IMG/VR virus record: IMGVR_UViG_3300047160_036126
Coordinates: 1-64,000 of that record
Reading direction: 5' to 3' (one strand)
DNA length: 64,000 nt
DNA from: a virus
Lineage: Duplodnaviria; Caudoviricetes
In this document: positions 9,476 to 34,159 of the stretch, piece after piece
How positions within the stretch are numbered: position 1 is the stretch's first letter
Layout: every line of letters starts with the position of its first letter
Position numbers and translations under genes: made by a program
The notes under the pieces: model-generated
What the model was told of the DNA's origin: nothing
Databases searched by the model: none
What the model saw: the letters and a program-made list of their open reading frames with translations, nothing else

Positions 9476-9497
9476 GCCTCAGGCGCCATTATAGATC

Positions 9498-9885: not shown

Positions 9886-9949
9886 GGGATACCTTGGGGA
9901 TACCTACAACTGTCCGCAGCGCTATCTATCTTCCGATAAGCCATTGATT
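9886..9949 (-). promoter_or_regulatory. Putative integrase arm repeats and IHF site
   Basis: Direct repeat GGGATACC (9886-9893, 9897-9904); minus-strand AATCAATGGCTTA (9949-9937) fits WATCAANNNNTTR. Confidence 0.6.
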
Positions 9950-9952
9950 TGA

Positions 9953-10000
9953 TGGGTGGGTGCACAAGGACTCGAACCTTGGACCCGCTGATTAAGAGTC
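9953..10000 (-). other. att-like core: 3' half of tRNA-Lys(CTT)
   Basis: Minus strand GACTCTTAATCAGCGGGTCCAAGGTTCGAGTCCTTGTGCACCCACC; no D-arm or 5' acceptor strand upstream. Confidence 0.85.
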
Positions 10001-10692
10001 CGTACACTCATCTTAAGGCGGATTCGGGAAAGCGACCTTGATTTCGCTTACGTCTGACGAAAGGCGGGCACTTCCATACATACTGTTATCCTAATGCGGC
10101 CACACTGGGGGTCGAGGACTCAAAAAACCATTTACAGTGGGATCCACCGGATCCAACCCATCAAGCTGCAGAATGAAGTCTCTTCGTCTTCCGTAAACGA
10201 AGGATCGCAAACCCTATGGAGTTTGACCGGTTCTTCAACCGTCAGCGCGCGGTCTCTCCTTAGCCGACCGGCTGCGTTTTCCATGACGATGCCACTCTGA
10301 CCGGAGCCGCGGGATTGAAGAGTGTCGAACACGGCGCGTGCGAAGGCGGACCTCCGGCCCTCCCCCACATCGCGCCTCGGGTGATTGTCTGCTTCAGCGT
10401 CGGCCGTTATGGCCGGTCTCGGTCCCGAATCATTCGACCACTCGTTAGTGGAGGTGGAACTGAGTAGCGTTGATCGGAGTTGCGCAATCATTTTGAGGCA
10501 ATTCACCACGTCAGCCGTGTTCCGCGCATGAGGCGCTCGTTCCAAGAGCAACTCGTTCGCTTCGGAGACGTCAAATCGCCGCTCGAGCCGTTCGCGGAAA
10601 TGGCCCCTTAAAGGGGCCGATCCCGTCGCGCGAGAAGCCGATGGGCGCGGTGCCGACCCCGGTGCTTCCCTATTGCTTCCTCTGAAAGCAAC

Positions 10693-10720
10693 AGGGCCTA
10701 GCCGTTTCCAACTAAGCCCT
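10693..10720 (-). terminator. Hairpin downstream of tRNA-Ala remnant
   Basis: AGGGCTTAG-10nt-CTAGGCCCT stem on minus strand. Confidence 0.5.
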
Positions 10721-10729
10721 TGAGTTAAT

Positions 10730-10774
10730 TGGTGGAGCCAACCGGGATCGAACCGGTGACCTCTACAATGCCAT
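10730..10774 (-). other. attR-like core: 3' half of tRNA-Ala(GGC)
   Basis: Minus strand ATGGCATTGTAGAGGTCACCGGTTCGATCCCGGTTGGCTCCACCA; 5' half absent. Confidence 0.85.
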
Positions 10775-19876: not shown

Positions 19877-20661
19877 TGAGCCTTCGTCTTTCCAGCTTCT
19901 GATTTGAGTTTGTTTTCTTTATCTCTTTCCTTTTCCTTTGCTGCCAGCGCAACAGTGGCTTGCTTGTAGTTCTTGGCGGGAATATCGATTGCCTTTTCCA
20001 CCTTCATATATTTCAGGAAATTTTGATGAACCTCTTCGCCTAAGGCCCGCGCTCGTTTATCGAGTTCGGCGGCCTGCTCTATGGTGATATTCCCGGTTTC
20101 GTGATTACCGTCCTTGTCGTCGCCCGTGCTGATATTCAGTAAGGCGCAGATTGCGACGCGCTTCGCATAGGTGACGGACGATGAGGTCGCATGCGGAAGG
20201 GTCTTGTTGACCGTGCCGGCGATACCCGTCTTATCGAGCGGCATCGTGATCGTGGTTTCTTCTACATGGCCGCCTCGGTGCCAGAGTTCGGCCTTGACCG
20301 TGACGCTGGTGTCGGTCTGTGCGATAATCTTCGTGGCGGTGCCGAAGCCGTATTTTTCTAAAACCGGGTCGATCTCGACGTTAATGTCTTCCAGCGGGGC
20401 ATATTTGGATTTGGTCTGAGTGTTTTCCTTGCGCCGCAATACCTTCGGCAAATGCGGCTTCATGAGAACGTAATCTGCGGCAAAAGCCTGTTTCGCATTC
20501 CGGTTTAGAATGTGTTCTTGAAGCGACATAAGCTTTTCGAGCTTCGTAACATCGAAATTCGGATCGGTCGCCGCGCGTTCGATCATGTTCATGACTGCCG
20601 CACGTTCGTCCTGTGCGGCGGGCAATTGCTGTTGTTCTTCGATCTTCTGTACGGCGTTCAT
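19873..20661 (-). CDS. ERF-family ssDNA annealing recombinase
   Basis: KSKYAPLEDI, SSVTYAKRVAICALLNI. Confidence 0.88.
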   Translation of the reverse strand: MNAVQKIEEQQQLPAAQDERAAVMNMIERAATDPNFDVTKLEKLMSLQEHILNRNAKQAFAADYVLMKPHLPKVLRRKENTQTKSKYAPLEDINVEIDPVLEKYGFGTATKIIAQTDTSVTVKAELWHRGGHVEETTITMPLDKTGIAGTVNKTLPHATSSSVTYAKRVAICALLNISTGDDKDGNHETGNITIEQAAELDKRARALGEEVHQNFLKYMKVEKAIDIPAKNYKQATVALAAKEKERDKENKLKSEAGKTKAQ

Positions 20662-20688
20662 GGGTTTCTCCCTGTTGTTGGTTTGTTT

Positions 20689-20877
20689 TTAATCGTCGTG
20701 GTGTCGGCGTTCTCCGGCTATCAATTCCTGTTCGGCTTTCTCGGCGTCTGCGATGAGCGTATCGACCTTGCGCTCAAGGTCTTTGGATGTGAGCAAGTCG
20801 TTGCGGTCGCGGGTCTTGAAATACCGCTTCTGCGCGTCGCGCATAGCGCGAACATTGGTCATGAACGTGGTCGTCAT
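20689..20877 (-). CDS. Small hypothetical protein
   Basis: MRDAQKRYFKTRD...SKDLERKVD; fits the operon. Confidence 0.6.
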   Translation of the reverse strand: MTTTFMTNVRAMRDAQKRYFKTRDRNDLLTSKDLERKVDTLIADAEKAEQELIAGERRHHDD

Positions 20878-21155
20878 TTCCGCACCTTCGCCTTGATGAC
20901 GCGCGCAGCATCATCCATCCCCTTGCGGGTAAGCACCTTGCCTTGCATTGGCTGCAACGCGCGCTGTGCTTCCTCTATAGCGGCACTGGAAATCCGTGCT
21001 GCGTACTCGGCCTGCGTCACTCGCTGGATGTTCGCGCGACTCGCTTCCTTGATGGCGTCACTGCGATTACCGTATTCCGTCAAAGCGGCAAGCCCGATAA
21101 ACAAGATCGCCATTGCGACGAAGGAAAAGCCGATATTTTTTATCGCCCAATTCAT
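20874..21155 (-). CDS. Membrane-anchored hypothetical protein
   Basis: N-terminal TM; overlapping stop/start on both sides. Confidence 0.6.
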   Translation of the reverse strand: MNWAIKNIGFSFVAMAILFIGLAALTEYGNRSDAIKEASRANIQRVTQAEYAARISSAAIEEAQRALQPMQGKVLTRKGMDDAARVIKAKVRK

Positions 21156-21433
21156 TCACTCGCCTCCCTCACCATCGTTTCAAGATCGCCGCCCCGGTGA
21201 TACCAGTCGTTCACGGCGTCCATGATGCGCTCGTTGGCGCGGCTGAGCGGTGGAACGGATGGCATCCATCCGTCTGCGAAGCGTTGGTCATATTCGGCTT
21301 GCCCGGCCTCGTAGTCGAGAAATGCCTTGACGGCCTTCTTGTCATCTTTAGTGACTTCGCTGTGATAGTCCCAGTAAAGTCGTAAGACAGTGAGCTTGGC
21401 GCGCGCCAATTCTTTTTCAGAGCGGTGGATCAT
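21152..21433 (-). CDS. Hypothetical protein
   Basis: ATG 21433 overlaps upstream stop. Confidence 0.55.
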   Translation of the reverse strand: MIHRSEKELARAKLTVLRLYWDYHSEVTKDDKKAVKAFLDYEAGQAEYDQRFADGWMPSVPPLSRANERIMDAVNDWYHRGGDLETMVREASE

Positions 21434-21651
21434 TTCAGCACCTTTGCGTCTTTCAGCGCTTTTCGGCATTCGTGGCGGAAGACCTGGACCGATGTGAAGC
21501 GGCCAACGCCGTATATCTTTCGTGTGGCGCTCCGGCGCAACCATGCGCTGTTGTAAAACAAATAAATAAGAGTGCCCGCGATGATGAGAGCAAAGGCCGC
21601 ATAGCCCCAAATTGGGAACGAGCAAAATCCTGCAAGATGTCCGTGGCACAT
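21430..21651 (-). CDS. Small membrane protein, first gene of the leftward early operon
   Basis: One TM; RBS GGAG. Confidence 0.55.
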   Translation of the reverse strand: MCHGHLAGFCSFPIWGYAAFALIIAGTLIYLFYNSAWLRRSATRKIYGVGRFTSVQVFRHECRKALKDAKVLK

Positions 21652-21810
21652 GGGGGCTCCTTGTTATTGCTTTTGCTTGTGCCCAAAGTTAACCAAGAAA
21701 GGTTATTTGTCAATTAATATCCGCAGAAATCTGCGCAAGGAAATTTCGTTCTTGCGGTAGTAATAAAAAGCGTTTGATTTATTTAACCATTCCTGCTTAT
21801 AGATTAAGCT

Positions 21811-22092
21811 ATGAAGGACACTAAGTCTGCTACCCCCCTCGAAGCTGCAATCCGCAAGATAGGGATGAAGCCATCGCGCTTGGCAAGATTGTTTGCAAAA
21901 AAGAAGAAAAGCAAGAGTTCGAATCCGGCGGCTCGCATACACGATTACTGCAAAGGTAACATATTCCCTGAATATGATAACGCCGTGGTGCTGCATGGAA
22001 TCGTAGTGGGCGCCGGCGGCCGTATTGAGTTGGAAGACATCATCGACCCTCCGCAGCGCAGGGAGAAAAAACGCAATGCTACTCCTCGCTGA
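21811..22092 (+). CDS. Cro/XRE-like small basic regulator
   Basis: LEAAIRKIGMKPSRLARL...IHDYCKGNIFP; first gene after a divergent AT-rich gap. Confidence 0.55.
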   Translation: MKDTKSATPLEAAIRKIGMKPSRLARLFAKKKKSKSSNPAARIHDYCKGNIFPEYDNAVVLHGIVVGAGGRIELEDIIDPPQRREKKRNATPR

Positions 22093-22363
22093 TATATTCA
22101 ATCATCTCATTCATGAGTCCTGGTTCACTGCGGCGCTTATAGCCACCATCCTCGTGCTTGGCAGTCTTATTGCCGGATGGTCGATGCATGATGCTACGCT
22201 GGTGTCAAAATGCAAACAACTCGCTGCAGACCTGGAGCTGGCGCAAGGTCATAACCGTCACTGGCAGCGAAAGCTCAAAGAGGAAAAAAGCCGGCGCATG
22301 GCAATCATTGGGACCCGCGGTGCTTTTGTAACCAATGCCAAGCGAAAGCAAAAGAAGGGATGA
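22076..22363 (+). CDS. TM + coiled-coil hypothetical protein
   Basis: Hydrophobic segment then heptads. Confidence 0.55.
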   Translation: MLLLADIFNHLIHESWFTAALIATILVLGSLIAGWSMHDATLVSKCKQLAADLELAQGHNRHWQRKLKEEKSRRMAIIGTRGAFVTNAKRKQKKG

Positions 22364-22600
22364 ATGCCCCGTGGCCTCAGCTATTCCGCTCGGCGCCGTC
22401 TGTACAAGGAACTATTCGCGCGCGACGGCAATCTGTGCTGGATCTGTGGTGAACCGATAAGCCGGAACAATCGAGGCAAAACCATGAGTCGCACTTTGGA
22501 TCGCGTCATCCCCGGAAAACAGGGTGGAACCTATCGGCCGGACAATCTTCGACTCGCGCATAAGCTCTGCAATGAACTGCGGGGAGCATCGCCCGCATGA
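22364..22600 (+). CDS. Small HNH-family protein (first His replaced by Arg)
   Basis: CWICG...TLDRVIP...GG...NLRLAHKLCN. Confidence 0.8.
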   Translation: MPRGLSYSARRRLYKELFARDGNLCWICGEPISRNNRGKTMSRTLDRVIPGKQGGTYRPDNLRLAHKLCNELRGASPA

Positions 22601-22806
22601 CACAGGACGGATTTCTCAAATCTCTCAGCGATAACAAGACCGCCGTAACCATTTATATTGTCAACGGTGTCAAATTGATGGGCGTGATCGCGTGGCACGA
22701 TCAATACACGATCGGCCTCTGCCGCGACGGCCGCACGCAGATGGTCTATAAACATGCAATCGCAACCGTGATGCCGAATGAACCGCCGCAAGTATCAGGA
22801 CGCTGA
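22597..22806 (+). CDS. hfq: Phage-encoded Hfq (Sm-like RNA chaperone)
   Basis: QDGFL, VTIYIVNGVKLMG, QMVYKHAIATVMP. Confidence 0.95.
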   Translation: MTQDGFLKSLSDNKTAVTIYIVNGVKLMGVIAWHDQYTIGLCRDGRTQMVYKHAIATVMPNEPPQVSGR

Positions 22807-23017
22807 AGCCGATTTGCTTCTTTGGCGCATGCTTGGCTGTAATCTCCATGGCGAGCTGATAGAATGTTATGCTAGTATTACGGGATGGGATAACTCGGTA
22901 GCGACCAATGCTGCTCACCGATCTGCTTTTGCTTCTTGCGATATTCATGGCAATTCGAGCGTGCCCGAAGAAAGGCCCCAAGCCGAAGAAAGAACGCCGC
23001 TGGCTTCGACGCAATAA
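22778..23017 (+). CDS. Hypothetical protein
   Basis: Overlaps hfq 3' end; no motif. Confidence 0.35.
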   Translation: MNRRKYQDAEADLLLWRMLGCNLHGELIECYASITGWDNSVATNAAHRSAFASCDIHGNSSVPEERPQAEERTPLASTQ

Positions 23018-23420
23018 GGCGCCACGCAAACGCGGTAGGTTTCACGCAGGACGCCCATCGCGATTTCCTCCCGATTGGGCTTGGGCGCGCCAGCAGCAAT
23101 ATAATCGGATCATGCAAACTACCTCGGCGGAAGCCGCTGTATGCGCCGTCCTTCGGAATCTTGGCATACAATACGAACGGGAACATATCGTAATGCGCCC
23201 AAATGGGCGGCCACTTTTTGTAGATGTGTGGGTGCCGTCGCTTCGGATTGGTATGGAACTGGACGGCTCTCACCATCGAGACTGTCTAGACGTATATGAT
23301 ATTCCGCGTGATCAATGGATAGAAAAAGAAACAGGATTTAAAATTCTGCGCCAATGGAATAAATGGGCTACCGATCCAGGATTGGAATATAGATTGAAAT
23401 CCGTACTTAAATTGCTATAA
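22908..23420 (+). CDS. DUF559/Vsr-like endonuclease (true start probably downstream)
   Basis: TSAEAAV...FVDVWVPSLRIGMELDGSHH...RDQW...GFKILR. Confidence 0.8.
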   Translation: MLLTDLLLLLAIFMAIRACPKKGPKPKKERRWLRRNKAPRKRGRFHAGRPSRFPPDWAWARQQQYNRIMQTTSAEAAVCAVLRNLGIQYEREHIVMRPNGRPLFVDVWVPSLRIGMELDGSHHRDCLDVYDIPRDQWIEKETGFKILRQWNKWATDPGLEYRLKSVLKLL

Positions 23421-23434
23421 ATGCGAAACGCCGG

Positions 23435-24130
23435 ATGCTTGAACATCGCGGCGTTTCTAAACCAATAACAGGGATGGCTGCCATGGTTTCGTGCAGTGTA
23501 ATATCACTACCAGATAATTTACAAAATAAGATTATGCCAGAACCAACGTCGGGTTGCTGGTTATGGATCGGGGCTAGAGATCCGAGAGGGTATGGCCGCA
23601 GGACGGCGCAGGATCATGGTGAGAGATTAGCACATAGAGCGGTGTACAAAATACTACGAGGGCCAATACCGCGCGGTCTATTTTTATGTCATACGTGTGA
23701 CAATCCTCCTTGTGTAAATCCTTCGCATATGTTTGTCGGAACACAACTCGACAATATGAGGGACTGCTTTTCGAAAGGCCGAGGACAAGACTTGCGCGGA
23801 GAAGAAAAGTATTGTGCGGTGTTAACAGAGAAAGATGTGATTGAGATCCGCCTTTCTAAGGAAATAACTCGTGATCTGGCAAAAAGGTATGGGGTAAATA
23901 AAGCGTCGATCACAAGTTGTCGGCTCGGAAATACATGGAAGCATCTTAACGAAAAGTATCCACCATTAAAATTTTTTGATATTCTGACGAATGAACAGAG
24001 ATTTACGGCCTTTCACGATAAACGTCCTATTATGGAAATTGCGCGCGACTATGGAGTAGCCTACCAGAGTATTTGGCAGCTTAAGCGCAGGGGGCTTAAG
24101 CCTCGTGGTCGCCCGCCTAAACATCGATAG
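23435..24130 (+). CDS. HNH homing endonuclease with C-terminal HTH repeats
   Basis: PEPTSGCWLWIG, GYG, LCHTCDNPPCVNPSHMFVGTQLDN, LTEKDVIEIR. Confidence 0.9.
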   Translation: MLEHRGVSKPITGMAAMVSCSVISLPDNLQNKIMPEPTSGCWLWIGARDPRGYGRRTAQDHGERLAHRAVYKILRGPIPRGLFLCHTCDNPPCVNPSHMFVGTQLDNMRDCFSKGRGQDLRGEEKYCAVLTEKDVIEIRLSKEITRDLAKRYGVNKASITSCRLGNTWKHLNEKYPPLKFFDILTNEQRFTAFHDKRPIMEIARDYGVAYQSIWQLKRRGLKPRGRPPKHR

Positions 24131-24243
24131 AGAACATCAGTAATGCTGAACCGCCTGTCGCCGCACCGGAAAGCCCCGACGTTCCCTTCGCCCAATCCTG
24201 AGCCTTCCTTGCGCCGCGCACAGGGGCTATAGGATGCGTCCTT

Positions 24244-24519
24244 ATGGCCTTCGAAGACGATGCACTGCGGCTCTTAAAACTGAATTCGGAGATTACCGAG
24301 CTGACCGTCAGGCTGTGGCTGCGGCTTGGGCGTATGACTGAAGAGGAGTGGGAAGCCGAGCGCCAGCGGCGATTGAGACGAATGAGGGTTGTTGAGCGAA
24401 TGGAAAACGGAATAGTACTAAAAGGCGATGCCCCGATAATGGCCGATATGATCGATGAGGCTTTGCAGGCCAGGGAAAAATACAAACGAATGCTTGAAGG
24501 AGACCGCGATGCGCCGTGA
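24244..24519 (+). CDS. Hypothetical protein
   Basis: Helical charged ORF in operon. Confidence 0.5.
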   Translation: MAFEDDALRLLKLNSEITELTVRLWLRLGRMTEEEWEAERQRRLRRMRVVERMENGIVLKGDAPIMADMIDEALQAREKYKRMLEGDRDAP

Positions 24520-24997
24520 TCCGGCCAGGGCCGTGAAGCTGCTCGACCTCATGTTGGAATTCTTTGGCGAGGACGGTCACAGGTGGGCGCGCGGCTGGCA
24601 TGATCCAAGGACAGGGGCCAGGTGCCTTGTGGGAGCAATGAACCATCTTCGGAGCCGCCACAGGATTTGTCGGGATGGTGCTGGTCGGTATCTTGACGAT
24701 GCGTTGCCCGCCCGGTGGCGCGGCTTAATAAAGTTCAATGATGAACACGAGGGCGGCTGGTTTGAAGTGCTGATGGTTCTGGCAAAAGCGCGGCAACTCG
24801 CTTTATGCGAGCTTAGCGGCACACCGAAGCCAGTAAAGGCGCACCAGCCACGCCGTGAGGCGTCATTGAGGGCCCGAATAGACCTCTTGAGCCAAATCTA
24901 TGAAGACCGCTGCTCGCCAAGGGTGCGCTGGATAACCAAGGATACCTATATCCTTTGCCCCAATGAGCCGGTCGAGGCGCTCCCAATGGCGGCCTAG
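24509..24997 (+). CDS. DUF6197-like hypothetical protein
   Basis: HRWARG...RCLVGAM...LIKFND. Confidence 0.55.
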   Translation: MRRDPARAVKLLDLMLEFFGEDGHRWARGWHDPRTGARCLVGAMNHLRSRHRICRDGAGRYLDDALPARWRGLIKFNDEHEGGWFEVLMVLAKARQLALCELSGTPKPVKAHQPRREASLRARIDLLSQIYEDRCSPRVRWITKDTYILCPNEPVEALPMAA

Positions 24998-25294
24998 CCG
25001 GGCTTTAACTGCTCTGCCAGCGCCCAAATGGCCTCGGCTATCGTCGGAGCCTGCGCACGTGCTAGCGGTTCATCCACGGCCTTCTGACGCAGATCGGTGG
25101 CCTCTGCAACGGTGATGCTGCCTGTGCGGCCCTGCAAGGCCTTCTGATAGCGTTCGTCGATGATCCTGGCGTAGGGCGCGGGATAGGCACGGGCGATGAT
25201 CTCGCGCCCGGTTGCTATAAGTTCGATACGGGCAAGCTGGTGGCGGTCGATCAAGGCGCTTGAGCTGGGTTTCGGGGGTGGCTGGCTTTGGCAT
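24994..25294 (-). pseudogene. Hypothetical protein with a 1-nt frameshift near 25255
   Basis: MPKPATPETQLKR| continues as LIDRHQLARIELIATG in the other frame. Confidence 0.45.
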
Positions 25295-25297
25295 GGA

Positions 25298-25501
25298 TCA
25301 CCACGGGATGGGCCGTCCATCATCACCCCTACGCCACGGAATAACCCTGCCGTCCTTATCGAGCCTACGGGTGCCGTATTGTTCGAGGGGCAAGGATAGG
25401 TTTGAGTGGATTTCGCACAGCTTGTTTTCCGCTCGCATGGCGACTTCCCAGCCGCAGATGATACACTCGCGCTGGATATCTTGGTTTGCTGGGTTTGGCA
25501 T
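25298..25501 (-). CDS. Small Cys-containing protein
   Basis: CIICG...LCEIH. Confidence 0.5.
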   Translation of the reverse strand: MPNPANQDIQRECIICGWEVAMRAENKLCEIHSNLSLPLEQYGTRRLDKDGRVIPWRRGDDGRPIPW

Positions 25502-25617
25502 TCAGGCATCATACTAAAAAGCCGCGGATATGCACAACCCTGCCAGCGCGTTTTCTTTCATCAAGCGCAGTATCTGTTTTGCTCATCTTGGCTTCCCCTC
25601 ATCGTCCACCAAATATG

Positions 25618-25854
25618 TCATTTAATCTGCTTAATTTCCTTCAGGATAGCCGCGAAGCCTTCGGCAGCCAGCCTTAGATCCATGGCCGAGCCGTAGGTGA
25701 TGCAAAGCTTGTCGGGTTCGGCCCACGGCCCCTTGAGGCTTCCTTCGGAATTACTGCGCAACTCGCGCGTGCCGAGGGCCCGCTCCAAAACGTCGAACCT
25801 GGTGCTCAATTCGTTTTTCAGTCGCGCCGCGTGGTCTTTTCGGATGACGGGCAT
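25618..25854 (-). CDS. Hypothetical protein
   Basis: RBS GGAGG; fits the operon. Confidence 0.55.
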   Translation of the reverse strand: MPVIRKDHAARLKNELSTRFDVLERALGTRELRSNSEGSLKGPWAEPDKLCITYGSAMDLRLAAEGFAAILKEIKQIK

Positions 25855-26222
25855 AGAGCCTCCCTAAATTTTCTTGCGGCATAGCGCACATTGTGAGCGT
25901 AACGGCGCGCGCGGATGAGGTTGAAGGCGGTCCTTGGCCGTTTCTGGCGCCGGCGAAGCTCGCGCACCGTCATCGGCCTTTCGGGAATTGCCGCATGCCG
26001 CACGCGCGCGTTTGCCGCGTCGACGTCTTCTGGCATCTGGGCAGGGGCAATGCGCAATCCGGCAAGCTCGTGGCCGCGGACGATGGCCTCGTCGAGGTCT
26101 TCAAGGATGTCGATGCTCTTACCTGCGCGCACCTCATATTCTCCCGGCCGCATACTGAGGTGCACGCCCTTAAGGGCGAGGTCGCGTTGTGCGGCGGTGA
26201 AGCGCTCGGCGGCCGAGGTCAT
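25818..26222 (-). CDS. Hypothetical protein
   Basis: ATG overlaps upstream stop. Confidence 0.5.
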   Translation of the reverse strand: MTSAAERFTAAQRDLALKGVHLSMRPGEYEVRAGKSIDILEDLDEAIVRGHELAGLRIAPAQMPEDVDAANARVRHAAIPERPMTVRELRRRQKRPRTAFNLIRARRYAHNVRYAARKFREALCPSSEKTTRRD

Positions 26223-26593
26223 CCGGCAACCCCCGGCACGGCGAACAAGGCATTTCGACATGCCGTCCCGATAGATCGCAGGACGGCCGGGGACGCTTTG
26301 CTGGCGGACAAGTAGCCTGATGCGTCGGACGTGGTGGAAGTCCCTTCTGCAGTATCGTCGGCGTGCAGGACGCCAGCGATGATCGTAGTGCTGCCGTTGT
26401 CGGATTTGGGATCGGGTATCCGGGTGGCACTGAAAACTATATCGACGTTGCCATTGCGGTCGGGCCTCTCGTCACATTGCAAGCGCGCCGGAAGGCCATG
26501 CGCTCCCAGCTCTCCATGTTCTTCTTGGGCCAGCGCCTGAAAGCTGATTAAAGCCGCGGCAAATACGATTGCGACCTGAGAAAGTTTATCCAC
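26219..26593 (-). CDS. Secreted hypothetical protein
   Basis: Signal peptide ...FAAALISFQALA. Confidence 0.6.
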   Translation of the reverse strand: MDKLSQVAIVFAAALISFQALAQEEHGELGAHGLPARLQCDERPDRNGNVDIVFSATRIPDPKSDNGSTTIIAGVLHADDTAEGTSTTSDASGYLSASKASPAVLRSIGTACRNALFAVPGVAG

Positions 26594-26634
26594 TTATAGC
26601 TCCATTCTGCTATAGGGCGGGTTTAGTCATGCTG

Positions 26635-26925
26635 TCACCCTGCCGGACTTGCACCGGCTCGGCTCGCTACAGCGAACCGTCTTTCGACTTTGCGGTCTAG
26701 TCTCGTGATGACATGAGGGTGATTTCGCGGTGTCTGTTTGACTAATCTTCCACCTCTTCGCTCTCTGGCAGAGTTAATCAAATCTCTACATCTTTGACAC
26801 GATTTGTAATCGCCTGCCCAGCCCGAACATCGTGAGCATCTGTTACCACCCATTTCTTTAGGCGCTTCCGTTTTCTTTTCAGGTGCAGGTAAGCTTTTTA
26901 AGTTTTGTCGATAGATGTGTGGCAT
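26635..26925 (-). CDS. Zinc-finger-like hypothetical protein
   Basis: CSRC...CQRC. Confidence 0.5.
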   Translation of the reverse strand: MPHIYRQNLKSLPAPEKKTEAPKEMGGNRCSRCSGWAGDYKSCQRCRDLINSARERRGGRLVKQTPRNHPHVITRLDRKVERRFAVASRAGASPAG

Positions 26926-26931
26926 TATCAG

Positions 26932-27153
26932 TTATTCTGCAAATTCCAAACAGTCGTAATGAAGCCGATCGTCCTGCTTCCTTCCAGGCCAGCGGACACG
27001 CACTATCTCGGATTTGCTCTGCGGTTGTCGATTGACTACTCCTATTTCCTCGCCCCAGAGCGATAACAATGGTCGTTGTTTGCGTCCTTGTGGCGACAGC
27101 CGAACCTTATCTCTGATCCTGAACGGGTTTTCGGTTTCTTGTTTGTCGGTCAC
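26932..27153 (-). CDS. Small SH3/KOW-like protein
   Basis: FRIRDKVRL...GVV...VRVRWPG; GTG overlaps upstream stop. Confidence 0.5.
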   Translation of the reverse strand: MTDKQETENPFRIRDKVRLSPQGRKQRPLLSLWGEEIGVVNRQPQSKSEIVRVRWPGRKQDDRLHYDCLEFAE

Positions 27154-27524
27154 GCCGCCTCCATCAATTCGCGCGCGCGGACTTTGCTCGACTCCGGCAT
27201 CTCCCAGCATTCGCCCCAATGGGTTTTGATCTCGATGCCGAACGGCTTGAGTTTTTTGCGCATCTTGCAAATCCATACGTCGAGGATCTTCTCACCCGGC
27301 GGCTCGTCGGCCTCGGTGCTGTACATTGCCGCAATGAAGGCTTCGACTCTTGGCGCCCGATTGTTAAGCAAAACGTTGAACATTTCTGCTTCGCTGCGAG
27401 TGAGGTTGAAATAGGGCGGCGGCATATCCGCTCCCTTAAGAGCCTTCTTAAGCAGGCGGATCTCTTCACGCAGCGTCTCGTTCTCGACGTCAAGAACTTC
27501 TGCCCTCGCCTTCCAGTCGATCAT
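27150..27524 (-). CDS. OmpR-type winged-helix DNA-binding protein, CtrA-like, no receiver domain
   Basis: LTRSEAEM...DEPPGEKILDVWICKMRKKL...IKTHWG; N-terminal coiled coil. Confidence 0.85.
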   Translation of the reverse strand: MIDWKARAEVLDVENETLREEIRLLKKALKGADMPPPYFNLTRSEAEMFNVLLNNRAPRVEAFIAAMYSTEADEPPGEKILDVWICKMRKKLKPFGIEIKTHWGECWEMPESSKVRARELMEAA

Positions 27525-28348
27525 GCGGCCATCCTGTTACCGGCACGGACCCAGCCTTGGGCGACGGCTTTCCACAATTGCATGCGGTGATCGACATCGG
27601 AATGGGCGGCGACTTGACGCCGCCATTGGTCGATCGATTTGCTGCGCACGACCGTGACGAGATCGGCGGCGGAATGCGCCCAGCCGAATTTGGCGTCGAA
27701 CAAGACGGCCGCACTGGCAAGGATTTCATGCACGACGACCGGCGCCCGCTTGGCAGATACCAGCACCTTTAAGGCCTTGGTCGCCTTTTCCTCACCCAGG
27801 CGCCCAACCAGGCGCACGATAGCGCCGGCGGCCATGGTATCTCCAACTTCCCATTCTGGCGCCTGAACCTTCGCAATGGTTACGCCGGCCGCCTGGGCAA
27901 CCTTCCGGGTGAGAAGGGCCGCCTCATCGCCGGCGACGATTTTGGCATGGAAGATTTGAAGGGCGTTCATCGTGAGACGGTGGGTATTCTGCTCGATGAA
28001 GGCCCGCGCGCGCTGCTTCAATTCGGCAGCTTTCACCACCATCACCGGGATTTTGTCGATGTCGCCGCGGCTCGCGGCTGCAATAGCGGTGTGCTGTCCG
28101 TCTATCACGCATAGCTTGCCATCCGTACCCTCTGCACAGATCGGCGGCTTGATATGTAGCCAGTCAAAATTTTTGGCAATCTCGCGAATAAGCTTGATCG
28201 ATCGCTTCGTGAGATCCCGCTGATATTCGCCTTCGATGAAAAGCTCTTTTGGGTCGATCCATTTGAAGGAAGGCTGTTCGGGGGAGACTGTTTCGAGCTT
28301 CAGGCTGGGAAGGGGGATCGGCTTAACGAGACGAAGCTTTGCTGACAT
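27521..28348 (-). CDS. ParB/Srx N-terminal domain protein (DUF6551-like)
   Basis: EYQRDL, VIDGQHT, RARAFIEQN. Confidence 0.8.
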   Translation of the reverse strand: MSAKLRLVKPIPLPSLKLETVSPEQPSFKWIDPKELFIEGEYQRDLTKRSIKLIREIAKNFDWLHIKPPICAEGTDGKLCVIDGQHTAIAAASRGDIDKIPVMVVKAAELKQRARAFIEQNTHRLTMNALQIFHAKIVAGDEAALLTRKVAQAAGVTIAKVQAPEWEVGDTMAAGAIVRLVGRLGEEKATKALKVLVSAKRAPVVVHEILASAAVLFDAKFGWAHSAADLVTVVRSKSIDQWRRQVAAHSDVDHRMQLWKAVAQGWVRAGNRMAA

Positions 28349-28368
28349 GCGCCCTCCCGGTTGTTGAT

Positions 28369-28590
28369 TTAGAGGGCTGTTCGGTCATGCCTGCACCGTT
28401 TGGGTTGTTTGTCGTCGGGTTGGAAAATCAACACGGAACCGTCAGACCGTTCCAGTCTAGCCTCCACGATAAGGCGGCCCGCCTGCTCGACGCAGGCATC
28501 GCAAATATAACAGGACGGTCCGGCGATAAAAAGAAACCGCTCGCTGGCGTAGGCGCCGCAGAATGAACAACTGAGATTCTTGTTGCTCAT
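28369..28590 (-). CDS. Stand-alone ClpX C4 zinc-binding domain
   Basis: LSCSFCG...IAGPSCYICDACV. Confidence 0.9.
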   Translation of the reverse strand: MSNKNLSCSFCGAYASERFLFIAGPSCYICDACVEQAGRLIVEARLERSDGSVLIFQPDDKQPKRCRHDRTAL

Positions 28591-29045
28591 GCTGCCGGCC
28601 TCTGGTCAGAAAGTTGCGGGAGCATCTTAGAATTTATAGCGCGGTCGAGGACAGTCTCGCCGGTTGGCAAAAGCATTTGACCAAGGAACGCGCCCTCGAA
28701 ACTTAGGATGCCACTCTCGATTGCCATCACCTGGCCCTTGATCCAATCGCGCAGGATCGAGTAAACGGCCTTTCCGCCAATGTCCAAGGCACGCTGCTCC
28801 CATTCGGCGCGGGAAGCGCGACGGCGATGACTATAAGGATTTTCTTTCAACCAAGCGGCTGCGTAACCCTTTGCAGAAGCGCGGACGCAGATCGGAATAT
28901 TGCGGAAGGTGAATTGGACGATAAGTTCGCCCTTCTCGAAATCCTGCATATGACCAAAATTCTGGACGCCAAAGCGCTGCAAAATCCTTTGCACCTCGTC
29001 CATTGCTTTCGCGCCGGTAGTGGCATCCTGATACGGCAGGCTCAT
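28587..29045 (-). CDS. Conserved phage hypothetical protein
   Basis: ILRDWIKGQVMAIESGILSFEGAFLGQMLLPTGET. Confidence 0.75.
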   Translation of the reverse strand: MSLPYQDATTGAKAMDEVQRILQRFGVQNFGHMQDFEKGELIVQFTFRNIPICVRASAKGYAAAWLKENPYSHRRRASRAEWEQRALDIGGKAVYSILRDWIKGQVMAIESGILSFEGAFLGQMLLPTGETVLDRAINSKMLPQLSDQRPAA

Positions 29046-29179
29046 GCGCGCCTCTCTGCTGTGCGCTGTGGCTTGGTTCGCGAATTGTATGAGATCGGAA
29101 GATCAAGAATCTTTCGCTCTACAATCACGGACATGCTTAAGCCTGTCTCCTTGCGGATATGCTTAAGCCTAGGCAGAAC

Positions 29180-29478
29180 TTTCTCTGATAAAAAGAATGT
29201 GTGATTTTTCTTCATTGAGAGATTGTATGAATAATAATTATTCAGTTGTCAATAAGCGGGTTCCTTGTTTGACGCGCCGCAGGCAAGTCAATAAAGGAGA
29301 CGTTCCTCGTCTCGACGAGATTACGTGACCACGCAAAGCGGCGTGGTCAAACCCTGCAACCGCGGAGCGGCGCGCAGCCATGGGCGAGCGGGGTTGACCG
29401 CAATAGCCGTGCCGCGTGGTATTGAGCAATAATGTTTCGTTCCGTTGCCGATATAAATAAGCGATTATTATTTAAGCG
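29180..29478. promoter_or_regulatory. Divergent control region with operator-like palindromes
   Basis: TGAATAA-TAA-TTATTCA (29228-29244), TTGAC-N13-GTCAA, TTGACA on minus strand; AT-rich. Confidence 0.55.
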
Positions 29479-30048
29479 TTGGACATGCTATATTTGGTCG
29501 CAGACAGGGCCGATTCTCGGTTTTGTCTATTCACCGCAAGGTGGGCGGGTTTGGGTGTTGCAACGCCTCGATCCTGCTCCTCGAAAGGGGATCGGCCCGC
29601 TACCTTCGCATCTTTCGAGGTCTCTCCTTTGGCTTTGTATTCAAAACGATTGCAAAAAAAATGGCCCCATTTGAGGTTCTGGGAAGAGATGTACGCGCTT
29701 GGGTGGCGAACGGAAGTTGGTTATGGACCAGCTATATATCAAGAGGACATACCGTCGGCCGCGGGGGTTTATCTTTTTGGATTAATCGACATATCTTTCG
29801 GTAAACGGCTTAAGCCGGTTCGGGTGGCATACGTAGGAAAGTCGCGTAACTTGGCGCGCCGCCATATTGACCATCCAATGCTCAGGTTTATTAGGCGAGA
29901 TGTCGGCCTGTGGTGGTCCATAGACCTGTGGTTTAAGAGACTGGATGAGGGAGAAATTACTTCGGAAGAGATTCGGCTGATCCAGGCATTCAATCCGCCT
30001 TATAACATACAACACAGACTGCGCGGATTTCATGGACAGGCTATTTAG
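29479..30048 (+). CDS. GIY-YIG domain protein (start uncertain)
   Basis: GVYLF...YVGKSRNLARRH...EIRLIQAFNPPYN. Confidence 0.8.
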   Translation: MDMLYLVADRADSRFCLFTARWAGLGVATPRSCSSKGDRPATFASFEVSPLALYSKRLQKKWPHLRFWEEMYALGWRTEVGYGPAIYQEDIPSAAGVYLFGLIDISFGKRLKPVRVAYVGKSRNLARRHIDHPMLRFIRRDVGLWWSIDLWFKRLDEGEITSEEIRLIQAFNPPYNIQHRLRGFHGQAI

Positions 30049-30700
30049 GATTGATTTCTATCCGCAGGATTGGCTCGTCAAAACTGGGGGTCTCACGCCC
30101 GAACAGTGTGGTGTTTACATTCAGGTCGTTTCGCTGATTTATGCTTCGCGTGGTCCTGTTGAATTTGATCCCGCTCGTATATCGAGACTCGTCCAGGGCT
30201 GTACGGTGCGAAGGGCAAAACGAGTGTTAGATGAGTTAATTGCTTTAAAAAAGTTACATGTGTTTGAGGGATTTTTGAGCAATAATCGGTGCGAAATTGA
30301 GTTGAAAGTAAAGAAAAACCAATTGGAATCTAACCGAAAAGGTGGGGAAAATTCGGCAAAAAAGAGGTGGGGTGCTAATGAAAACAGAGGCATAGTTGTA
30401 AGTCACTTAGAAAGTGACTTAATAACCCCGTCCCCGTCCCCGTCCCCGTCCCCGTCCCCGAAAGAATACTTCTTTGAAGGTAAAATAATAAAGTTGACGG
30501 AAAAGGATTTTAATCAATGGCGATCGTCTTACCCGAACATTCGAGATTTGCGGGCTACGCTGCAGCGGCTTGACGATGGTGCCGCGCGGAAATGGGGAAA
30601 GGGTTGGTGGCATCCGTGTTCTTCGACTTTGGCCAAAATTAACGCGGAAGAGAAAACAACAGCACGGGCGCCGCTGCACCCAGGGGCGATTACGATATGA
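30032..30700 (+). CDS. Replication initiator, YdaU/DUF1376 family
   Basis: IDFYPQDWL..T..LTPEQCGVY; Pro-Ser linker. Confidence 0.85.
   Translation: MDRLFRIDFYPQDWLVKTGGLTPEQCGVYIQVVSLIYASRGPVEFDPARISRLVQGCTVRRAKRVLDELIALKKLHVFEGFLSNNRCEIELKVKKNQLESNRKGGENSAKKRWGANENRGIVVSHLESDLITPSPSPSPSPSPKEYFFEGKIIKLTEKDFNQWRSSYPNIRDLRATLQRLDDGAARKWGKGWWHPCSSTLAKINAEEKTTARAPLHPGAITI
30426..30460 (+). repeat. (CCCCGT)n hexamer tandem repeat encoding a Pro-Ser linker
   Basis: About 6 copies, in frame. Confidence 0.8.
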
Positions 30701-31995
30701 AGGAAACGGATTCTTTGCCGGTTAATCACGATGTAGAGGTCGGCCTAATAGCCTGCGCAATGCTGGGGCCGAAGCTTTGGCACGAAATGGCATTCGTGGC
30801 ACCAGATGATTTCGTCGATCCGTTCAATGGAAAACTTTGGGCGTTGATACGGGCGGCATATGAGCGGGGGGAAAGCCCCCAGGTGCAGGCGATAGGGGAT
30901 GCGGCCGGCGGCACGACGGATGAACGTAAGCAGATTACGGATTGGCTTGTGAGTTGGATGTCTAGGACGATCACGGTTTTGTCGGGTGTCGATTATGCGA
31001 AGATGGTTCATGATTATGCGGAGCGCCGAAAAATTATCGACTTGGCGAACAGGATTCAATTTGAGGCGGCCGATGTGTCGGGCGCGCGGATTGCGGCGGA
31101 TATCGCCGCCAAGGCCGTCAGCGAATTGACGAACATCGTTTGCCGTAAGCGCGAGACGTTGAGTGCATTTGAGGTGGGTATGCAGGTGGTAAATAATCTC
31201 GCAAAACCGATGGACTTTTGTTCTACGAAATTCCCGCGGCTTGACGGTGCGCTTGGCGGCGGATTATTTCAAAACAAATTTTACGGCATCGGCGCCCGGA
31301 TGAAATCCGGCAAAAGTCTCCTCATGTCGACGCTTGCTTACAACATGACGGTTATGGGGACCAGCCGGGTTTTATATCTGTGCCTGGAAATGGGATATGA
31401 GGAAACGTTTCAGCGCCTTCTGGCGCGAAAGATGGGTTTTAATGCATCGGAATTTCTCGATCCGATTAAGCGGCTCGACAAGGGGTTCCGAGAGAACGCT
31501 CGCACAGCGGCCGCGACATTCAAGGATTGCGGGTTATTTTTCAAAGCGAGGCCACGGATCGATATTGACGATTTGAAATCGATCATCGCGCAGGAAGGTC
31601 TGCGGGGTCATGTGGACGGGATAATCATCGATTATTTGCAACTCGTTACTGGAAAAACAAAGTCGCAAACACTGGCTGACCATTACGATCATGTGGCGCA
31701 GACAATGGCCGAAGCCGTGAAGCGGTATCCGATTTGGATTCTGACTGCGGCGCAGCTTAATCAAGAGGGCAATATCCGCGGTGGTGAAGGCTTATTGAAC
31801 GCGTGCGATATGACTTTCGCCCTGCACAAAAAGGAATTTGCACCGGATTGGCAGGGGACGAGGGTTTGTGATGAAGCGTGGCTCGAAATGATGGCGAGCC
31901 GGTACACACAATACCGAAATATCGGTTCCGAGCAAAGTGCCGGTTACAGGATTGAAACACAGATTGGGCCGATGTTCTGCGAGCAACAGCTATGA
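30697..31995 (+). CDS. dnaB: DnaB-like replicative helicase
   Basis: Walker A GARMKSGKS, CLEMG, IIIDYLQL, AAQLN. Confidence 0.93.
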   Translation: MKETDSLPVNHDVEVGLIACAMLGPKLWHEMAFVAPDDFVDPFNGKLWALIRAAYERGESPQVQAIGDAAGGTTDERKQITDWLVSWMSRTITVLSGVDYAKMVHDYAERRKIIDLANRIQFEAADVSGARIAADIAAKAVSELTNIVCRKRETLSAFEVGMQVVNNLAKPMDFCSTKFPRLDGALGGGLFQNKFYGIGARMKSGKSLLMSTLAYNMTVMGTSRVLYLCLEMGYEETFQRLLARKMGFNASEFLDPIKRLDKGFRENARTAAATFKDCGLFFKARPRIDIDDLKSIIAQEGLRGHVDGIIIDYLQLVTGKTKSQTLADHYDHVAQTMAEAVKRYPIWILTAAQLNQEGNIRGGEGLLNACDMTFALHKKEFAPDWQGTRVCDEAWLEMMASRYTQYRNIGSEQSAGYRIETQIGPMFCEQQL

Positions 31996-32181
31996 AAATC
32001 CCGATCCGTGGGTGGCGGCGGAAGCGCGGGACAGGTTCGAGATGTTGCTGGTGGTCTGAGGGAATTTCGGTTGAATATGCGTGATCGGTTCGCATGCGGA
32101 ACGATTGGAGATCACCCTATAAAGCCTTTGACATTAAAGATTTTTCGACTTAATCAATAATTGTTCGAGTCGCATTGAACA

Positions 32182-32212
32182 GCGGCCCGGTTCGCGATAG
32201 CAGCCGGGCCGC
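32182..32212 (+). terminator. GC-rich hairpin after the replication module
   Basis: GCGGCCCGG...CCGGGCCGC; lacks a U-tract. Confidence 0.35.
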
Positions 32213-32230
32213 ATTCCATTGAGGCCGCTC

Positions 32231-32662
32231 GTGCCGAAAAAGAAAAAACCTCAGCCGCAAAAATCAGAAACGGGATTGGAAGTCAGCATTTGCTTGGCAC
32301 TGGCGGTAATTTTTATTGCCGCGTTGCTTGTGCGGGGATGGATGGAAATCAACACGGTTGCTCAGCTTCGCGATGACAACAAGGTTCTGACCGCTGCGAA
32401 CCATCAATTGTGGGACGAAGTGGATAAGCTGAAAGCGGAGAAGGTTGAAACGTTGCCGGCCGCGGGTCCACAGCATATTTTTCTGCATGATGACCCGCCG
32501 AAAGAGCGTTCGGCTGATAGCCTAAATCTGGCTGAAGCCGTGCGCCACGGCGACCACAGGCGCGACAACATCGAAACGGATAAAGCCGCGGTTCACGCGG
32601 AGGAGGCACGCACGCCGGACGACGCCGGAGAGGAAGGCCAATGCCCGGTGTGCTCGAAATAA
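32231..32662 (+). CDS. Membrane-anchored coiled-coil protein
   Basis: Basic N-terminus, one TM, heptads. Confidence 0.6.
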   Translation: MPKKKKPQPQKSETGLEVSICLALAVIFIAALLVRGWMEINTVAQLRDDNKVLTAANHQLWDEVDKLKAEKVETLPAAGPQHIFLHDDPPKERSADSLNLAEAVRHGDHRRDNIETDKAAVHAEEARTPDDAGEEGQCPVCSK

Positions 32663-32841
32663 CCCGTTTCACTCCGCGCCGGAAGGCCGAGCTGGTTCAT
32701 GCAATCGCGACCGGCGCGGTTAGCGATTACGAGGTGATGCAGCGGTATTCGATGTCTCCGCAGGAACTGCTCGATCTCAAGCGTCTCGCACCGCAAGGGC
32801 GAAAGGCGCTGCGCGTGACGAAGCGAACGGTTTCCGCATGA
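32641..32841 (+). CDS. sciP: SciP-like (DUF1153) CtrA-inhibitor homologue
   Basis: RFTPRRKAELVHAIATGAVS...RYSMSPQEL...ALRVT. Confidence 0.8.
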   Translation: MPGVLEITRFTPRRKAELVHAIATGAVSDYEVMQRYSMSPQELLDLKRLAPQGRKALRVTKRTVSA

Positions 32842-33287
32842 TGAATTTAACCCCAGAGCAACTGCAAGAAATGTACGTCGGCCAAAACAAGTCGATGAAC
32901 GAGATCGCGCGGATAAGCGGCATGCCCAAGGGCACAATCGTGAGTCGGTTGCGCAGGTTGCGGCTGAGGGGGTTGATCGGGTTCAAAGCTCGCGGGCCGG
33001 CGAAAGTATTACACAGGCCGCGAAAACCTGTTGCCGATAAGCCGAAACCAGTGCCCGTAGTGGTACAGCCCAAAATTGAGATGCCCATTCCAGTGGCGCC
33101 GGTGAGCCTCCTGAAGGTCAACGACAGGCTTTGCCGGTATCCGCTGGATTATAAGATCGACGGGTTTTCGGCATGCTGTGGCGGGGAGGTGGTGGCGGGG
33201 ACGCCCTATTGCGCGGATCATGCTGGTATTTGCTTTATTGTGAAGCCGCGGGTGCCGCCGCGAGGTCATCGGGCGATCGGGGAGTGA
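32838..33287 (+). CDS. gcrA: GcrA cell-cycle regulator homologue
   Basis: N-terminal HTH (SMNEIARISG..KGTIVSRLRRL); C-terminal VSLL..CRYP..CCG...GTPYCADH. Confidence 0.85.
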   Translation: MMNLTPEQLQEMYVGQNKSMNEIARISGMPKGTIVSRLRRLRLRGLIGFKARGPAKVLHRPRKPVADKPKPVPVVVQPKIEMPIPVAPVSLLKVNDRLCRYPLDYKIDGFSACCGGEVVAGTPYCADHAGICFIVKPRVPPRGHRAIGE

Positions 33288-33463
33288 GTTATACGCCGTC
33301 TTTCGAAATCTGGTATGATCGCAGTCTGTGTATTTCTTACCGATTTCGGATTTTCCGCGATGGCTTCTGTAGCATAAGATTTGTAACGGCCAAGGAAGCG
33401 CGGTTTTTTCTCAGGTATTGGTACGGGGTCACGGGTGCTCCAGAATTCGGCTTTCCGTCTTAA
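33284..33463 (+). CDS. Small hypothetical protein
   Basis: GTG overlaps gcrA stop. Confidence 0.35.
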   Translation: MSYTPSFEIWYDRSLCISYRFRIFRDGFCSIRFVTAKEARFFLRYWYGVTGAPEFGFPS

Positions 33464-33514
33464 AATATTGTTGCGCGCGCTGGACATTTGCAGCAATACT
33501 CGCAGTAATTAGGC

Positions 33515-34159
33515 ATGCGCGCGGCTACACCTTTGGTAAAACAAACGGAATTACCGGCTTTTCTGGTCGAGCGGCGTGCGGTCGCGCGCAAAAAGGAGCG
33601 CAAGATTTCGGCGCCGCGTCCTATCGGCGACGTCGGCACCGCGGAAATGAAACGACAGCAAAAGGTGACGCTGGAAGTGCGTGAACGGTCATCGACCGGG
33701 CATGCGACGATGATGGGCGCGCGTGTGGAATCGCAGTTTCCGATTGATCGGTATAAGGCGCGCAAAGAGCTCGATCCGGCGAATGCCTGGAGGAATTTGA
33801 TGCTGTGGCAGGCGGCTGAGCGGCTGCGCGAGGATTTCCAGGCTTCAGGCCTAGCGCCGAAATTGTGCGGAAGTTTCGAGCCGCGGGTGACGGGCGGACG
33901 TCAGACGTTCGAGGCGGATCATCAGGTCGACGCTCTCAGGCGCTACAAGAAAGCGATGGATGCTGTGGCGGTGACGCTGCGGTCTGTGGTGTTCTATGTG
34001 TGCATCGCTGGTGAGGCTGCGAACGAGTGGGCGCGGCGGAACGGAGAAATACCGCAAGCGGGCCTGCCGATATTGCGCTTGGGCCTCGCGGAGCTTGCGC
34101 ACCACTACGGTTATGCGAAAATTCCAGTGACAGACAAGACGTCGCTCGCTGGAGAATAA
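33515..34159 (+). CDS. DUF6456 domain protein, putative late-gene activator/antiterminator
   Basis: AAERLREDF...VCIAGE...LRLGLAELAHHYG; occupies the Q-like position. Confidence 0.7.
   Translation: MRAATPLVKQTELPAFLVERRAVARKKERKISAPRPIGDVGTAEMKRQQKVTLEVRERSSTGHATMMGARVESQFPIDRYKARKELDPANAWRNLMLWQAAERLREDFQASGLAPKLCGSFEPRVTGGRQTFEADHQVDALRRYKKAMDAVAVTLRSVVFYVCIAGEAANEWARRNGEIPQAGLPILRLGLAELAHHYGYAKIPVTDKTSLAGE

Follow-up and report, generated by a model that had tools for sequence, protein, structure and literature searches.

We examined a gene through which a prophage encodes its own Hfq, the hub of small-RNA (sRNA) regulation in many bacteria, and considered what an Hfq with an altered rim could do for a virus. 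The gene, called hfq here, lies at positions 22597-22806 of a stretch of 64,000 nucleotides (the window), which comprises bases 1-64000 of the 77,574-bp IMG/VR provirus record IMGVR_UViG_3300047160_036126. It encodes a true member of the Hfq family. The protein is unusual in that it is phage-borne and reduced to a bare Sm core and, judging from its sequence, in that its annealing surface has been specifically rebuilt while Hfq of the likely host family (see below) is nearly frozen. If the annealing surface is indeed lost, the protein would be a natural separation-of-function allele and could reveal how a virus interferes with the post-transcriptional control of its host. It would also be a natural protein with which the model of the rim as the active site of the Hfq chaperone could be tested directly.

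Fold, RNA-binding faces and rim of the phage Hfq

The open reading frame (ORF), which has no further in-frame start upstream, matched the Hfq family PF17209 (E 1.9e-24, a score of 85.5 bits where the cut-off is 27, and profile positions 2-62 of 64). A profile search at the genome level showed that this is the sole Hfq in the whole 77.6-kb record. The closest solved structure was that of Caulobacter crescentus Hfq (6gwk, E 1.5e-20), to which the phage protein aligned without gaps, its residues 3-66 corresponding to Caulobacter residues 10-73. The E. coli Hfq chains aligned phage Q3 to Q8, which sets the numbering used for comparisons; substitutions such as N13K are given in E. coli numbers. An AlphaFold2 (AF2) monomer model, obtained from 60 homologues, had a pLDDT of 91.7 and consisted of a helix (residues 3-12) followed by five strands (16-21, 26-34, 38-43, 46-51 and 55-60). 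Foldseek comparison of this model with the chains of 6gwk gave TM scores of 0.83-0.91 (0.89 is quoted below) and rmsd values of 0.4-2.2 Å. The interface strands β4 and β5 are near-identical to those of host-type Hfq, and therefore the protein probably forms a hexameric ring.

An earlier note on this DNA, made from the letters alone, had described the ORF as a prophage-encoded Hfq in which the motifs and the residues of both faces are kept, the rim RRER is replaced by SDNK and the C-terminal tail is missing. The first statement was borne out by the exact ORF, the family match and the block of phage genes, from integrase to coat protein, in which hfq lies. Alignments to 6gwk and to the E. coli chains likewise confirmed that the equivalents of Q8, D9, Y25, K31, Y55, K56 and H57 are kept (phage Q3, D4, Y20, K26, Y51, K52 and H53, respectively). 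As for the rim, the residues do align as described and the basic pair at positions 16 and 17 is gone; the patch is nevertheless not erased, as K14, the equivalent of R19, is kept. The tail is absent: nine residues without an acidic tip follow the conserved proline, compared with 15 in Caulobacter and 25-49 in the likely host family. We also observed three changes that the earlier note did not mention, namely a lysine gained at N13, F39 changed to H, and R47 (Caulobacter R49) changed to C.

We measured the conservation of each column over the 147 nearest Hfq representatives, which were mostly of the alpha-type. The proximal-pocket residues Q3, Q36, Y37, Y51, K52 and H53 are present in the phage protein, in columns that are 83-100% conserved. 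The pocket is altered only by N41Q and F42Y, and each of the seven proximal residues is either retained or replaced conservatively. Both substitutions are natural states elsewhere, as in the sequences examined Q41 occurs in gammaproteobacterial-type Hfqs and Y42 in some. The tyrosine, lysine and histidine of the Sm2 motif, 97-100% conserved, are all kept, and the stretch formed by this motif and strand β5 reads YKHAISTVMP in the likely host family. On the distal face Y20, G24, V25, K26, Q48 and T57 are kept, while two columns that are 94-96% conserved are changed (Q33M and S60A).

The rim and the lateral pocket presented a different picture. The lateral pocket is formed by N13, R16, R17, S38 and F39 (PMC5379935), and the rim of Caulobacter Hfq by R18, K19, K21, R49 and R50 (PMC6561178). 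Arginine occupies position 16 in about 90% of the representatives, and position 17 is K or R in about 90%; the phage Hfq has serine and aspartate there. The N13 column is N in 91% and K in about 1%, and the lysine that the phage protein has gained, K8, sits one helical turn before the lost pair. The F39 column, which holds the base-stacking residue, is F in 89-94%. The only residue of the lateral pocket left unchanged is at the S38 position, where the phage protein has W, the alpha-type state also found in the likely host family. In total, five of the eight residues of the rim and lateral site are changed non-conservatively (N13K, R16S, K17D, F39H and R47C). It is the annealing activity that depends on this site; membership of the Hfq family does not. 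Across the whole protein, non-conservative departures at columns that are 83-96% conserved were N13K, R16S, K17D, Q33M, F39H, L45G, R47C and S60A, and five of these eight fall in the rim or lateral site. K19 and R48 are the surviving basic rim residues, and the net charge over positions 13, 16, 17, 19, 47 and 48 goes from +5 in host-type Hfq to +2 in the phage Hfq. Since K19 and R48 are kept and K13 is gained, the rim is remodelled and not blank.

In Caulobacter Hfq the acidic tip of the C-terminal domain docks onto the rim and gates the access of RNA (PMC6561178). It makes sense that rim and tail should be lost together, because the tip docks on exactly those residues that are lost in the phage protein.

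Hfq of the likely host and other Hfqs on mobile elements

The prophage carries GcrA-like, DUF1153 (SciP-type), CtrA-type and ClpX zinc-finger genes, which indicate an alphaproteobacterial host. The best genome matches of its portal protein were in metagenome-assembled genomes (MAGs) of the order Acetobacterales, with 64% identity in an Acetobacteraceae MAG and 58% in one of Rubritepida. We sampled 201 genomes of the likely host family; 200 had an Hfq match, nearly all of them in single copy, and none of these Hfqs was more than 60% identical to the phage Hfq. We read 33 chromosomal hfq genes (32 from the 201 sampled genomes, and that of G002). Their core was almost invariant and their tails mostly ended in acidic residues. 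All 33 carried R-K-x-K on α1 and R-R after β3, hence Hfq of the likely host family does not have the altered rim; a host Hfq with the same rim as the phage protein was one of the outcomes that the earlier note had named as refuting its proposal. Separately, P0012, a chromosomal alpha-type Hfq on a 2.9-Mb contig, was found to have an S-T-N-K rim, which leaves a small doubt over the contrast with the host.

The phage Hfq is 53-57% identical to alphaproteobacterial chromosomal Hfqs (Caulobacter 6GWK, TM 0.89, and the Acetobacteraceae type). It shares with them the 'RDG' loop, W38, the proximal residues Q8, K56 and H57, the distal residues K31, Q52 and T61, and the near-identical β4-β5 strands. 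It differs in the rim, where S-D-N-K and C-R stand in place of Caulobacter R18-K19-x-K21 and R49-R50, with F39 changed to H and N13 to K; unlike the Caulobacter and Acetobacteraceae type it has no N-terminal extension, and it is phage-borne and not chromosomal. Positions 14000-33900 of the window were compared by blastn with 401 genomes of the likely host family, and no related prophage came to light. Host hfq genes accounted for most of the matches, including every one within hfq; their nucleotide identity was 67-73% along the greater part of the gene and reached 83% over short stretches. The remaining matches were short and lay elsewhere in the query. This is in line with a host-type hfq that was captured and then diverged fast.

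A HMMER search of 1.84 billion cluster representatives gave 2,568 Hfq matches. Only the protein's own cluster fell below 1e-30; all other matches were at most 60% identical to the phage Hfq, and almost all of them carried RKxK. A word-based protein search returned the own cluster only. The identical protein was present on six contigs, the longest of 85 kb, and a one-residue variant on a seventh. Many of the top HMMER matches (P0002, P0003, P0008 and others) were tandem Hfqs with two domains, in which domain 1 has a canonical RKxK-type rim and domain 2 is rim-depleted (for example A-R-D-D-T-N or V-Q-E-T-G-V).

Hfq was rare in cultured phage records: the 7 tblastn matches obtained there were for the most part evident contamination by host DNA. 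When 2.9 million viral contigs were searched in two pattern scans, about two dozen Hfq loci were detected, several of which were host genes at provirus edges. In a literature search for phage- or prophage-encoded Hfq we found no paper on the subject, although the coverage was incomplete and such absence is not proof. Among the viral loci, L056 (positions 5938-6231 of IMGVR_UViG_3300037247_002433, a T7-like podovirus with a GC content of 37%) has K13, Q16, T17, K19 and L47 at the rim. Its hfq lies inside a structural module, downstream of the portal gene and between a scaffold gene (Phage_T7_Capsid) and genes with an Mtd_N domain, and the published neck-plug role of host Hfq in phage T4 makes a structural role plausible to consider there. 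The L064/L065/L008 group, located beside a VapE primase, has Q-E at positions 16 and 17. It is part of a short viral Hfq-like family (L064, L065, L006, L007, L008, L066 and L067) on at least 7 contigs, with a Q-E-C-R or Q-E-L-Q rim and Y25 changed to I in most members and to F in L008; the family adjoins a VapE-type primase/helicase gene and a DUF3797 gene. L068, near a terminase, has C-E at these positions, and L060/L061, the context of which is less certain, have I-D. R-K is kept in L054, beside a weak portal-like match, and in L055, which adjoins an integrase.

The phage Hfq has in common with the rim-altered viral Hfqs (L056, L064/L065/L008, L068 and L060/L061) its short length, its phage context and the loss of R16/K17 and R47. 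It is, however, only 36-50% identical to them, and several lack Y25 or the YKH motif, both of which the phage Hfq retains. Its identity to L056 is 48%, whereas the two reach 59-62% and 67-69%, respectively, with canonical alpha-type Hfq; their rim losses therefore look independent. Lysine at position 13 recurs in L056, L061 and L068, all without R16/K17, and could represent a convergent shift of the basic patch. Small as it was, this survey of viral contigs suggests that rim loss recurs in unrelated phage Hfqs, possibly as a class.

Other mobile or additional Hfqs were also observed. G175, a genome of the likely host family, has on its contig 2 (71803-71979, L051) a second Hfq with an I-K-T-G rim and R47T, beside a canonical chromosomal copy. 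Two Hfqs of Microvirga megaplasmids (L081 and L082) have R-D-G-N and R-D-K-R rims and R47V, with R16 kept and D at position 17. Plasmid hfq genes were present in 387 PLSDB records, 305 of them from Bacillus, and are common in the Bacillus cereus group.

What the phage Hfq may do

In E. coli Hfq the rim arginines are the annealing site, R16 being nearly invariant; an R16A mutant or a triple rim mutant binds RNA on both faces, does not anneal it and does not support sRNA regulation (PMC3753642). The premise of the earlier note, that rim arginines drive annealing, thus has an experimental basis. Annealing activity further scales with the number of rim arginines (PMC6561178). The E. coli rim mutants (R16A and R16A/R17A/R19D) lose the same positions 16 and 17 as the phage protein, and by analogy they may serve as its functional model. 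They are, however, engineered changes of a single surface in an otherwise wild-type protein with its tail, whereas the alteration of the phage protein is a natural one, accompanied by F39H, R47C, N13K and Q33M and by the absence of the tail, with K19 kept.

We propose that hfq was taken from an alphaproteobacterial host-type gene and then reshaped. Its product retains the fold and the interface strands, as well as the proximal pocket that accepts U-rich 3' ends and the greater part of the A-rich distal face. It has lost the basic residues at rim positions 16 and 17, Phe39 with its stacking role, one β3-β4 arginine out of two and the whole regulatory tail. Such a hexamer would bind sRNA tails and A-rich mRNA leaders and would be a poor catalyst of sRNA-mRNA pairing; without the acidic tail, the phage ring would not be gated. 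Expression from the early rightward operon would put the ring in competition with host Hfq for RNAs, and the outcome could be blunted host sRNA regulation, including that by host sRNAs targeting phage mRNAs, or the sheltering of phage transcripts. Competition of phage and host RNAs for Hfq is documented (reviewed in PMC12197685). The nearest characterised case is Hfq3 of the Bacillus anthracis plasmid pXO1, over-expression of which is toxic via the distal face, with RNA sequestration as the proposed cause (PMC5348863). Hfq3 and the plasmid Hfq paralogues are likewise extra Hfqs on a mobile element beside a chromosomal copy, but Hfq3 is plasmid-borne, of the Gram-positive type and at most 40% identical to the phage Hfq. 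We lean, tentatively and at somewhat less than an even chance, to the reading that a ring made by the phage binds U-rich sRNA ends and A-rich leaders, pairs them poorly and acts as a competitor for RNA or as a shelter.

Several points weigh against this reading. As host Hfq is normally present in very large amounts, a competitor would have to be highly expressed. Three basic residues (K8, K14 and R43) lie near the rim of the phage protein, and therefore some annealing activity is possible. Because of Q33M and S60A, binding to the distal face may be altered. The lineage is an orphan with no diverged orthologue, in which conservation of the SDNK rim cannot be traced. The host family was deduced from phage genes, as the record itself has no host housekeeping genes, and this limits the contrast with host Hfq. 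Finally, two ORFs of the divergent region from which the operon starts (21811-22092 and 21152-21649) had no counterpart among the Pfam and PHROG families, and without a family match for these regulators early-lytic and lysogenic expression are not distinguishable from the sequence.

A wider reading, which we consider unlikely, is that Hfqs without rim and tail are a recurrent, convergent class of phage counter-regulators, RNA sinks that disarm host sRNA regulation. Phages of different hosts would have arrived at them by dropping the annealing site (R16/R17, R47) and the gating tail while the faces that bind RNA were retained. If this were true, such a class, with its defence against host sRNAs aimed at phage mRNAs, would be the bacterial analogue of viral RNA-silencing suppressors. 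In that case the phage Hfq might join the GcrA-, SciP-, CtrA- and ClpX-ZBD-like mimics of host regulators, a step that we regard as equally doubtful.

Other explanations have to be considered together with binding without annealing. The basic residues K8, K14 and R43, perhaps with H34, could form a shifted patch through which the protein is still an active matchmaker, dedicated to one or a few phage-encoded sRNA/antisense pairs and not to the host regulon. The position of the gained lysine one turn before the lost pair and the intact proximal and mostly intact distal residues are in line with this, K13 looks like a selected alternative given its recurrence in three other viral Hfqs and its rarity in canonical ones, and Hfq-dependent phage sRNAs are known (PMC12197685). 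Against it, position 17 is an aspartate, and R16 of E. coli Hfq cannot be replaced by lysine when the RNAs are long (PMC3753642). Moreover, an Rfam scan of the window gave no match, and terminator-like sites near hfq, like promoter-like ones, were no commoner than in shuffled sequence. Such a dedicated chaperone is therefore possible, though we would not expect it. The earlier note had suggested, besides, that the protein might poison host Hfq: mixed hexamers would have fewer active rims and tails and would act as dominant negatives on host sRNA regulation. The fold superimposable on Caulobacter Hfq and the interface strands β4 and β5, almost as in the host family (TQMVYKHAIATVMP compared with TQLVYKHAISTVMP), would allow mixing. 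On the other hand, a mixed ring retains several intact rims, so that dominance would be partial, and the core changes L45G, L26I and T37A may lower compatibility. Hfq hexamers are also stable and abundant, and their mixing would need co-translation or high expression. We find poisoning rather improbable, and less likely than binding without annealing.

A role outside riboregulation was also weighed, in assembly or DNA handling, for example as a transient head-neck plug or as a helper of replication or recombination. In phage T4 a hexamer of host Hfq sits on the neck, where it forms a second, transient gate for the genome, with contacts at K31, Q33, T49, S65 and R19 (PMC12929587). That plug is the host's own Hfq in a structural role that involves the side of the distal face (K31, Q33), whereas here the Hfq is phage-encoded and far from the structural genes: the terminase and portal genes belong to another operon, about 13 kb away from hfq. 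The hfq of L056 lies within a structural module, and in the present prophage hfq stands among nucleases and adjoins the Erf/exonuclease/NinB module. Yet Q33, a contact residue in T4, is changed to M, and a purely structural role would not call for the strict retention of the proximal RNA-binding residues that we observed; we give this explanation a small chance. A similarly small one is given to hfq being a passenger, a captured gene of little or no function that drifts and travels together with homing-endonuclease genes. The orphan lineage on only about seven contigs, the low-GC islet with three endonuclease genes and the existence of related prophages without a second Hfq (for example in G001, portal 64% identical) would suit a passenger. 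However, the intact reading frame is coupled to that of the gene before it, the AF2 model has high confidence, and the recurrence of rim loss in unrelated viral Hfqs suggests selection and not drift. In addition, in comparison with the 147 nearest Hfqs, substitutions affected one of the 15 most conserved columns and 23 of the 43 others (Fisher p = 0.0018), and the single change among the near-invariant columns was conservative, at about 40% divergence. Since substitutions avoid the most conserved columns, hfq does not appear to be a decaying pseudogene, and continued selection on the fold and on the proximal site is indicated.

Neighbourhood of hfq and the prophage record

The positions of the features are collected in Table 1.

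Table 1. Features of hfq and of the prophage in the window (residues in phage numbering unless stated otherwise)
Feature	Position	Strand	Evidence or remark
Tyrosine integrase	12763-13815	-	Pfam Phage_integrase E 2e-21; marks the left prophage end
DUF3800 protein	14837-15607	-	just inside the integrase end
HNH_3 endonuclease gene	15652-16158	-	just inside the integrase end
MT-A70 methylase	16914-17474	-	E 2e-27
NinB, exonuclease, Erf	18.8-20.7 kb	-	profile matches
HNH endonuclease gene	22364-22600	+	Pfam HNH E 4.4e-7; phrog_338 E 4.6e-15
GGGGAG, putative Shine-Dalgarno-like site, 10 nt before the hfq ATG	22581-22586	+	read from sequence
hfq, 69 aa, Sm core only with 2-residue N-terminus and 9-residue C-terminus	22597-22806	+	ORF listing, PF17209
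K8 at E. coli N13 (lateral pocket), gained lysine	22618-22620	+	alignment
Rim patch S11-D12-N13-K14, helix α1	22627-22638	+	equals E. coli R16-R17-E18-R19, Caulobacter R18-K19-S20-K21
H34 at E. coli F39, base-stacking residue of the lateral pocket	22696-22698	+	alignment
C-R at E. coli R47/R48 (Caulobacter R49-R50), β3-β4	22720-22725	+	alignment; R in about 90% at the first column
Sm2 motif and strand β5, YKHAIATVMP, K56/H57 equivalents and subunit-interface strands	22747-22776	+	alignment
C-terminus NEPPQVSGR, nine residues after the conserved Pro, no acidic tip, last residue Arg	22777-22803	+	sequence
DUF559 (Vsr-like endonuclease fold) gene, downstream of hfq	22908-23420	+	Pfam PF04480 E 2.6e-7
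HNH_3 homing-endonuclease-like gene	23435-24130	+	Pfam HNH_3; phrog_1872 E 6.9e-27
CtrA-type winged-helix domain	27150-27524	-	Trans_reg_C E 2e-4, below cut-off
Stand-alone ClpX zinc finger	28369-28590	-	E 7e-12
Primosomal protein and DnaB	30.0-32.0 kb		profile matches
DUF1153/SciP-type protein	32641-32841	+	E 5e-10
GcrA homologue	32838-33287	+	E 7.6e-8
Large terminase (TerL)	from 35441
Portal	from 37476
P22-type coat protein	from 41141
Sheath-like protein	from 45463

The hfq gene is located between the recombination and the replication module, inside a tightly packed rightward operon that begins near 21.7 kb, at the divergent region. The start codon of hfq overlaps the stop codon of the HNH gene (ATGA), which suggests translational coupling. 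The structure of the translation-initiation region was not unusual (z = -0.33). Together with the three endonuclease-type genes around it, hfq has a GC content of 0.46-0.52, compared with 0.556 for the prophage; it is thus part of a low-GC accessory islet within the early operon. We also considered whether hfq could be a host gene at the edge of the provirus and rejected this, as it lies about 9 kb inside the integrase, between the two modules, and the record is flanked by genes of conjugative elements, unlike a chromosomal hfq neighbourhood.

The record is assigned to the provirus class with a completeness of 100. Profile matches identified the gene set of a temperate phage in one block, with integrase, recombination, replication, packaging and virion genes. 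Genes of conjugative or mobilisable elements were present on both flanks of the record (window 1-12000 and record 64001-77574), and included AAA_25, SSB, an HTH protein, a HATPase protein, T4 coupling protein, MobA relaxase, ArdC and ParB. The prophage therefore seems to be nested in, or to adjoin, an integrative and conjugative element or a plasmid. No exact direct repeat of at least 13 bp joined the two prophage ends, hence the att sites are undefined, and a search of the window and the right flank revealed no tRNA. Megablast gave no match for the structural region among cultured phages, and for the right flank among plasmids it gave a 61-bp ParB match only.

At least four endonuclease-type genes were observed in the early region, the HNH_3 gene near the integrase and the HNH, DUF559 and HNH_3 genes around hfq. 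The prophage also carries small look-alikes of alphaproteobacterial cell-cycle regulators, namely the CtrA-type domain, the ClpX zinc finger, the DUF1153/SciP-type protein, the GcrA homologue and the MT-A70 methylase (Table 1), and hfq may be one more mimic of a host regulator.

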